From the NCBI RefSeq assembly GCF_988243305.1, contig NZ_OZ547136.1: 64,000 bases of DNA. One strand, 5' to 3'. The position numbers and the translations under genes were made by a program. Under the pieces are notes generated by a model that saw only the letters and a program-made list of their open reading frames with translations, ran no database searches and had not been told where the DNA came from. Below are positions 58,477 through 59,604 of this stretch, one piece after another; position 1 is the first letter of the stretch, and every line of letters starts with the position of its first letter.

Positions 58477-59604
58477 TTAGAACTGGTAAACCAGACCCAG
58501 AGCTACGATGTTATCAGTGTTGATGCCAGCGTCACGAGTGAACTGGTTGTCGTCCAGCAGGTTGATTTTGTAGTCAACATAGGTGGACATGTTTTTGTTG
58601 AAGTAGTAAGTAGCACCAACATCAACATATTTCAGGATATCTTCGTCGTCGTAGTTACGACCATTGATGACACCCAGGTTTTTACCTTTAGACTGCAGGT
58701 AAGCCAGGGACGGACGCAGACCGAAGTCGAACTGGTACTGAGCAACAGCTTCGAAGTTCTGTGCTTTGTTCGCCCAACCCAGGGAACCTACGCGAGTTGC
58801 GTTGTAGGTCTGGGTGTACTGAGCAGCCAGGTAGATGTTGTTAGCGTCGTATTTCAGACCACCAGTGTAGGTTTCAGCACGGTCGCCAGTACCGATCAGA
58901 CCAGTGTTGTTCTGATCCCAGGTACGTTTGGAGCTGGAGATCGCACCACCGATACCAAAGCCTTCGTAATCATAAGTGATAGATCCGCCAACGCCGTCGC
59001 CGTTCTGACGCAGAGCTTTACGACCATTGTTGGTGATGCCATGGCCAGTGAAATCCGGATCACTTTCACCGCTTACGCTACCATTCTGGCCCTGGTACTG
59101 AACAGCAAAGTTCAGGCCATCAACCAGACCGAAGAAGTCAGTGTTACGGTAGGTCGCGAAGCCGTTACCACGCTGCTGCATAAAGTTGTCAGAACCGTAA
59201 GTGTCGCCACCGAATTCTGGCAGTACGTCGGTCCAGGAAGTTACGTCGTAAACTACGCCGTAGTTACGACCATAGTCGATAGAACCGATGTCCTGGAATT
59301 TCAGACCAGCAAATGCCACACGGGTCCAGGAGTTGTTTTCGCTTTCCGGAGCGTTGCCCTGGATCTGATATTCCCACTGGCCGTAACCGGTCAGCTGGTC
59401 AGTAACCTGAGTTTCACCTTTGAAGCCAAGACGCATGTAGGTCTGGTCGCCATCTACAGACTTGTCGTCAGAGAAATAGTGCAGGCCGTCTACTTTACCG
59501 TACAGATCTAATTTGTTGCCGTCTTTGTTGTAAACTTCAGCAGCGTTTGCTGCGCCTGCTACCAGCAGAGCTGGGACCAGGAGGGACAGTACTTTAACTT
59601 TCAT
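58477..59604 (-). CDS. ompC: Outer membrane porin OmpC (variant allele)
   Basis: 375-aa ORF with classical porin signal peptide and C-terminal ...LGLVYQF. It is longer than the 367-aa K-12 OmpC I recall, with differences in predicted surface loops. Confidence 0.95.

Follow-up and report, generated by a model that had tools for sequence, protein, structure and literature searches.

The ompC gene at 58477..59604 (minus strand) of the DNA analysed here encodes a porin that is longer than OmpC of Escherichia coli K-12, and this locus raises the question of whether its divergent loop segments arose by mutation within the lineage that carries them or are older pieces brought in by recombination, and of what they would change at the cell surface. 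We addressed this question in a window of 64,000 nucleotides, i.e. the whole stretch of DNA analysed (NCBI RefSeq assembly GCF_988243305.1, contig NZ_OZ547136.1), for which a first-pass annotation made from the sequence alone was available.

Identity and setting of the gene

The coding sequence (58477..59604, minus strand) comprises 375 codons plus the stop and encodes a 21-residue signal peptide followed by a 354-residue mature porin, as judged from the open reading frame, the NCBIfam model NF007841 and the solved structure 2XE1 (about 97% identical). The features of porin architecture are present: the AlphaFold2 model shows a 16-strand barrel with a long, inward-folded L3, and the sequence starts with a signal peptide and ends on an aromatic residue (..YQF). 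As in K-12, the gene is flanked by apbE (ftp) on one side and by the divergent micF-rcsD on the other, and the locus order ada-apbE-ompC-micF-rcsD, then rcsB, is collinear with K-12 MG1655. That the frame encodes a different general porin (OmpF, PhoE, OmpN or one of prophage origin), or that its extra length is an assembly artefact, has a practically negligible probability: although these porins share the family PF00267 and the protein scores significantly with the models of OmpF and PhoE, these scores (475.9 and 450.7 bits) lie under the curated cutoffs (583 and 599, respectively) whereas the 756.9 bits obtained with NF007841 ('porin OmpC') are far over its own cutoff of 484, the position between apbE and micF/rcsD is exactly that of K-12, and several independent assemblies carry a 100% identical sequence, which refutes the artefact reading.

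The expression elements surrounding the gene were located as well. The signal peptide codons (residues 1-21; 59542..59604, minus strand) show 0 nt differences from K-12 in the alignment, and the divergent ompC-micF regulatory region (59605..59937) differs from K-12 at 1 of its 333 nt. This region is known to hold the OmpR-binding sites. Trimeric assembly and osmoregulated expression through OmpR and micF would be expected of an OmpC porin, the latter with indirect support from this near-identity. The micF antisense sRNA gene, divergent from ompC, was identified at 59938..60031 on the plus strand (Rfam RF00033, 116.8 bits for a gathering score of 79), with its terminator at 60003..60025. An intrinsic terminator of ompC, formed by a GC-rich hairpin (AAAGGGCCTGCGGGCCCTTT) and a subsequent T run, is found 3' of the stop codon (58439..58458, minus strand). 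The open reading frame is thus very probably the intact chromosomal ompC of an E. coli other than K-12, in the customary position, normally equipped and corresponding to a known natural allele.

The placement of the window outside K-12, already proposed in the first-pass annotation, was borne out, as the window shares 97.45% identity with MG1655 over the 7 kb from ada to rcsD and differs from it at 89 of the 1128 ompC positions, all of them between gene positions 139 and 1026. Among the 5,426 complete RefSeq E. coli genomes, the closest reach 99.2% identity over bases 1-24000 and 98.6% over bases 40000-64000, and a draft assembly (L003, GCA_047678995.1) is 100% identical to the window over 15.5 kb. 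This draft stands for the window's own lineage, which is poorly represented among complete or finished genomes.

Some further features of the window were noted. Antisense to ompC runs a 364-aa open reading frame (58417..59511, plus strand), in exact codon register with ompC, that stops at the sole TTA codon of ompC (codon 32, 59509..59511). It was rejected as a gene and considered a shadow of codon bias because ompC uses no CTA or TCA codons; the codon bias of ompC is strong, CTG accounting for 25 of its 28 Leu codons. A naRNA4/REP-type element (63773..63849, minus strand) lies in the rcsB-rcsC spacer (63684..63860), the arrangement of which varies among otherwise collinear loci, with extra or shifted repeat copies of 93-96% identity (BLAST). 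An intact 863-aa autotransporter, with a TIGR01414 beta-barrel domain and an Ag43/AIDA-like passenger, is encoded at 35161..37752 (minus strand) and adjoins a tRNA gene (34983..35056, plus strand). In K-12, this position is occupied by yejO, which is considered a pseudogene.

Placement of the differences from K-12 OmpC

The protein has 375 residues against 367 in K-12 MG1655 (NC_000913.3, b2215, L001), two lengths that the first-pass annotation had given correctly, and the three peptides quoted there are all found in the translation of 58477..59604. Global alignment of the two proteins yielded 30 changed columns, i.e. 22 substitutions and 8 inserted residues. In order to place them, we used the strand and loop topology of Beck et al. 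2016 (S1 Fig; PMC5056734), which assigns 134 columns to loops and 241 to the rest of the protein. Changes are very unevenly spread between these two classes, with 28 of 134 loop columns changed versus 2 of 241 elsewhere (Fisher exact p = 8.9e-12).

An AlphaFold2 model was further built on 62 diverse porins (pLDDT 90.8). Its strand and loop map agrees with the published topology, and low confidence is restricted to the tip of L4 (residues 178-193). In this model, the L7 insertion sits at the tip of a protruding beta-hairpin, which it lengthens. The use of DSSP strands from the model as a definition of the barrel was tried and rejected for L7, where the beta14-beta15 hairpin runs extracellular; the published topology was preferred because DSSP scores the L7 insertion as strand although it stands outside the membrane barrel.

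Changes relative to K-12 were found in L1, L2, L4, L5 and L7, and no amino-acid change was found by global alignment in L3 (the constriction loop), L6 or L8. All of the coordinates that follow are on the minus strand. L1 (residues 45-51, SDDKSVD; 59452..59472) carries N47D and D49S, and L2 (residues 82-91; 59332..59361) carries S85A, A86P and N88S. L4 (residues 173-199; 59008..59088), which is of type b2, combines 7 substitutions with 4 inserted residues, namely DPD (59053..59061) and H188 (59041..59043) in the alignment to K-12. L5 (residues 227-241; 58882..58926) is of type a11, the CFT073 type, and shows 7 substitutions. L7 (residues 309-321; 58642..58680), of type e, contains a 4-residue insertion, GVIN (equivalently VING; 58663..58674), together with G317N.

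Outside the loops, only two changes were found (59278..59289), both conservative: V106I, located in a periplasmic turn, and F109I, located in a beta-strand; I109 is common to the window allele, the LHM10-1 allele and E. albertii. The earlier description of differences clustered in loops, with indels there and with the signal peptide and barrel unchanged, can now be specified. Clustering holds for 28 of the 30 columns, although its list omitted the changes in L1 and L2; the insertions are real in L4 and L7, whereas L5 differs from K-12 by substitutions without any indel; and the 21-residue signal peptide is indeed identical, whereas V106I and F109I modify a turn and a strand of the barrel.

Compared with the window protein, K-12 OmpC (b2215; structure 2J1N) is therefore a shorter form by 8 residues, with L4 of type a1, L5 of type a1 and L7 of type a and with a different L1 and L2, that shares the signal peptide, L3, L6, L8 and, bar F109I, the strands. 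We infer that the diffusion channel would work as in K-12, because the barrel, L3, L6, L8 and signal peptide are the same apart from the two conservative changes.

Origin of the loop segments

The exact 375-aa protein is already public (P0001, 'porin OmpC [Escherichia coli]', e.g. EEY7858092.1) and was retrieved from 272 contigs through an exact-protein index. Beck et al. 2016 (PMC5056734) classified the OmpC loops of 2,707 E. coli proteins and distinguished 33, 30 and 13 types for L4, L5 and L7, respectively. Exact string comparison with their S2 Table assigned the window loops to L4 b2, L5 a11 and L7 e, a combination listed in their S1 Table as entry 117, strain KTE144; the comparison with KTE144 OmpC (gb ELG83233.1) covered these three loops. 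At the nucleotide level, no identical allele was found among the 5,426 complete RefSeq E. coli genomes (best 99.5%), and the exact nucleotide allele was recovered, via the exact-protein index, from draft or other assemblies only. Across the complete genomes, 61 records reach at least 99% ompC identity and most lie at 90-95%, which makes the window allele part of a minority family, at roughly 1%. Published work already covers this exact protein, the types of its loops and a mosaic evolution of ompC driven by recombination, and this gene is an ordinary loop variant.

Comparison with named alleles specified these relationships. The closest, LHM10-1 OmpC (WP_000865544.1; b1/a11/e), is also 375 aa long and shares I106, I109 and the loops but for one residue, having N181 at the L4 tip where the window has S181 (b1 versus b2); this is the sole protein difference, and 6 of 1128 nt differ. 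OmpC of the uropathogenic strain CFT073, for which the closest solved structure (2XE1) is available, has a mature length of 354 aa like the window protein and is about 97% identical to it, with the same L1, L2 and L5 (a11) and an L4 of the same family. About 10 residues differ, including F109 (window I109), N181 and V300, VGAAV in the periplasmic turn where the window has IGGAI, VVAG at the place of VING in L7 (type c against e), and, within or past L8, A358 and D365. The O157:H7 protein of E. coli (c2/a6/e; loops of PDB 9WCB) has the same L7 insertion as the window, LGVING, but a short L4 with 8 residues fewer than the window, and an L5 reading SPLYIG instead of NTGLIG.

The history of the allele was approached through assemblies carrying it. 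There are 0 differences over the 1128 nt of ompC between the window and L002, L004, L005, L006 and L007, whose ada..napA flanks (8.8 kb) are 1.8-2.2% from the window; the four backgrounds carrying the exact nucleotide allele have flanks 1.4-2.2% apart from one another. Identity to L002, L004 and L005 is 100% over a tract spanning apbE, ompC, micF and the 5' end of rcsD (57286..60995), beyond which flanking DNA abruptly differs by 1-3% (e.g. 33 mismatches over the 1065 nt of ada). A shorter tract (58415..59784), essentially limited to ompC, its terminator and some upstream sequence, is 100% identical to L006. Breakpoints are thus sharp (57286/60995 and 58415/59784), delimiting identical tracts of 1.4-3.7 kb. 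Because the identical nucleotide allele stands on four diverged backgrounds, we consider that a receptor allele has been exchanged between them, and the locus offers a small, clean case of such an allele moving among E. coli backgrounds in tracts of this size. Separately, positions 56980..57479 of the window, which take in the 5' end of ada, the spacer between ada and apbE and the 3' part of apbE, show 41 mismatches per 500 bp (about 8%) to L006; this is several times the local background and may be another recombination patch beside the ompC tract.

The age of the loop segments was assessed by pairwise comparison with K-12 (Nei-Gojobori). Synonymous divergence (dS) reaches 0.58 across the variable loops and 0.85 for L4 and L5 combined, while strands, turns and signal peptide together give 0.086, and loop dN/dS is 0.34-0.40; these loop values are rough, since they rely on 27-42 synonymous sites only and uncertain alignment near the indels may inflate both dN and dS. 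Such high loop dS, with dN/dS of about 0.4, leads us to favour old cassettes rather than local mutation. On this reading, the loop segments are pre-existing cassettes (L4 b2, L5 a11 and L7 e) that circulate in Escherichia and are reassorted by homologous recombination, with exchange tracts ranging from intragenic to a few kb, and they are not products of mutation within the window lineage. In the literature, ompC has been described as a gene of 'mosaic evolution', with hypervariable regions L1, L2, L4, L5 and L7 (bioRxiv 10.1101/2021.09.21.461324).

Alternatively, the loops could have diversified within the window lineage, new point mutations and small indels being fixed under positive selection by phages or host immunity. 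In its favour, exposed loops hold the great majority of the amino-acid changes, codons changed nonsynonymously and synonymously stand at 20:14 in loops versus 2:13 elsewhere (p = 0.0045), and S181 in L4, set against the otherwise identical LHM10-1 allele, is a possible recent point change. Yet each loop string of the window is already known in other E. coli, with the full combination in KTE144; the divergence values above indicate old segments rather than recent adaptive mutation; the L5 and L2 cassettes are nearly identical at the nucleotide level in E. albertii and E. marmotae; and the presence of the whole allele, nucleotide for nucleotide, on four diverged backgrounds largely refutes an origin within the lineage. 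Diversification in place is hence highly improbable, and S181 alone looks like a recent point change as far as these alignments go.

The reassortment of older cassettes was also considered at the scale of the genus, by comparing species loci (L010, L011 and L012) with window positions 56172..59604. E. coli is 84-87% identical to E. albertii or E. marmotae in ada, about 90.5% in apbE and 93-95% in ompC, i.e. ompC diverges by 5-7% between species while the adjacent apbE diverges by about 9.5% and ada by 13-16%. This low interspecies divergence of ompC could reflect codon bias in a highly expressed gene, interspecies recombination, or both. E. albertii is 90% identical to the window in apbE and 84% in ada, and the window ompC is closer to that of E. 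albertii (94.8%) than to that of K-12 (93.6%). Over the 45 nt of L5, the window differs from E. albertii at 1-2 positions and from K-12 at 13, and K-12 differs from E. marmotae at 1; over the 30 nt of L2, the window differs from E. marmotae at 0 and from E. albertii at 1.

At the protein level, OmpC of the E. albertii type strain NBRC 107761 (L012; also P0007) has 375 aa and differs from the window at 16 residues, fewer than K-12 OmpC does. L2, L5 (a11) and I109 are the same in both proteins, and the L4 of E. albertii is likewise of the b family, with that same insertion of 4 residues; E. albertii differs by its L4 type (b4, GSEDY where the window has SDPDF), its L1 (NKSED), its L8 and its L7 (TIGT or TIAG). 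When 100,044 species representatives (one genome per species) were scanned with a degenerate pattern of the L4 core motif, this E. albertii type strain was the only match, so that import of the L4 cassette from outside Escherichia found no support at this sampling of one genome per species.

This case also shows loop cassettes that E. coli has in common with E. albertii and E. marmotae. Tentatively, they may be a trans-species balanced polymorphism of Escherichia, older than the split of the species, the alternative being recent interspecies exchange. Such a polymorphism, possible but the less expected of outcomes, would account for the b-family L4, the a11 L5, the APES motif of L2 and I109 common to the window allele and E. 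albertii, and for the a1-type L4 and L5 that K-12 has in common with E. marmotae. If this were true, ompC would be an MHC-like locus, with allelic lineages predating the species that carry them.

Receptor function of the loops

L4, L5 and L7 are experimentally mapped contacts for phage adhesins, CdiA and antibody (PMC5056734; PMC12892980; PMC5221442; PMC8426304). The changed exposed surface of the window protein would alter which phage adhesins, CdiA toxins and antibodies bind while diffusion is kept, and the cassettes would persist through frequency-dependent selection exerted by these three agents. Loop diversification under phage or immune selection, as the first-pass annotation had it, matches the published view of OmpC (PMC5056734; bioRxiv 10.1101/2021.09.21.461324), to which contact-dependent inhibition adds a further documented candidate agent beside phage and immunity. 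The claim stands with two qualifications as regards the process: the cassettes came by recombination and not within the lineage, and the sequence does not by itself demonstrate positive selection, the pairwise loop dN/dS being about 0.4. Classical evidence of positive selection was accordingly rejected, the ratio of 0.34-0.40 not exceeding 1 and being read as a mark of old cassettes.

It could further be argued that the loop differences are neutral, i.e. that the loops are unconstrained and that recombination shuffles their variants without selection by phage, toxin or antibody. A loop dN/dS below 1 would fit, as would the many lengths and sequences tolerated in L4, L5 and L7 (33, 30 and 13 types) and the fact that chimeric loop combinations still assemble (PMC5056734). 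However, neutral loops would not be expected to exceed the rest of the gene 7-10-fold in synonymous divergence, nor would their cassettes be expected to stay nearly identical between species whose flanking genes are 10-16% apart. Moreover, L3, L6 and L8 are also loops, yet they are without amino-acid change, and experiments establish that the variable loops decide phage, CdiA and antibody binding. We thus regard neutrality as improbable and retain the persistence of old cassettes, presumably under selection at the cell surface, as the preferred reading.

The consequences for particular ligands can be outlined from published experiments. Recognition by CdiA-EC536 (class II CDI, for which Beck et al. 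reported a 'self-receptor' association) is set by L4 and L5; the recognised L4/L5 combinations include those of strains 536, F11 and UTI89, the allele of strain A35H (b1/a11/e) gives resistance, and L5 a11 in the CFT073 context is unrecognised (PMC5056734). We would leave the window allele out of the CdiA-EC536 receptor class, because the nearest tested allele, that of A35H, conferred resistance.

The gp38 adhesin of phage PP01 depends on the L7 insertion GVIN and makes contact with L5 residues Ser225 and Pro226 of O157 OmpC (PMC12892980). The L7 determinant GVIN is present in the window protein, and the L5 contacts Ser225/Pro226 (..QNSPLYIG..) are absent from it, L5 a11 reading ..QNNTGLIG..; use of the window allele by PP01 cannot be assumed because these contacts are missing. 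The allele type would thus predict a surface phenotype in which GVIN/LGVING is present, the L5 contacts of O157 for PP01 are absent, and the closest resemblance is to a CdiA-EC536-resistant allele. As regards phage T4, substitution of a Phe in L4 abolishes adsorption, and O157 OmpC is unusable by this phage (both cited as unpublished data in PMC5221442).

Finally, the epitope of the monoclonal antibody 2G12, reported as O157:H7-specific, consists of LGVING in L7 and a 13-residue peptide of L6 (PMC8426304). Both peptides are present in the window OmpC sequence. This epitope is unlikely to be O157-specific, because many isolates other than O157 have an L7 of type e in the S1 Table of Beck et al. 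(PMC5056734).
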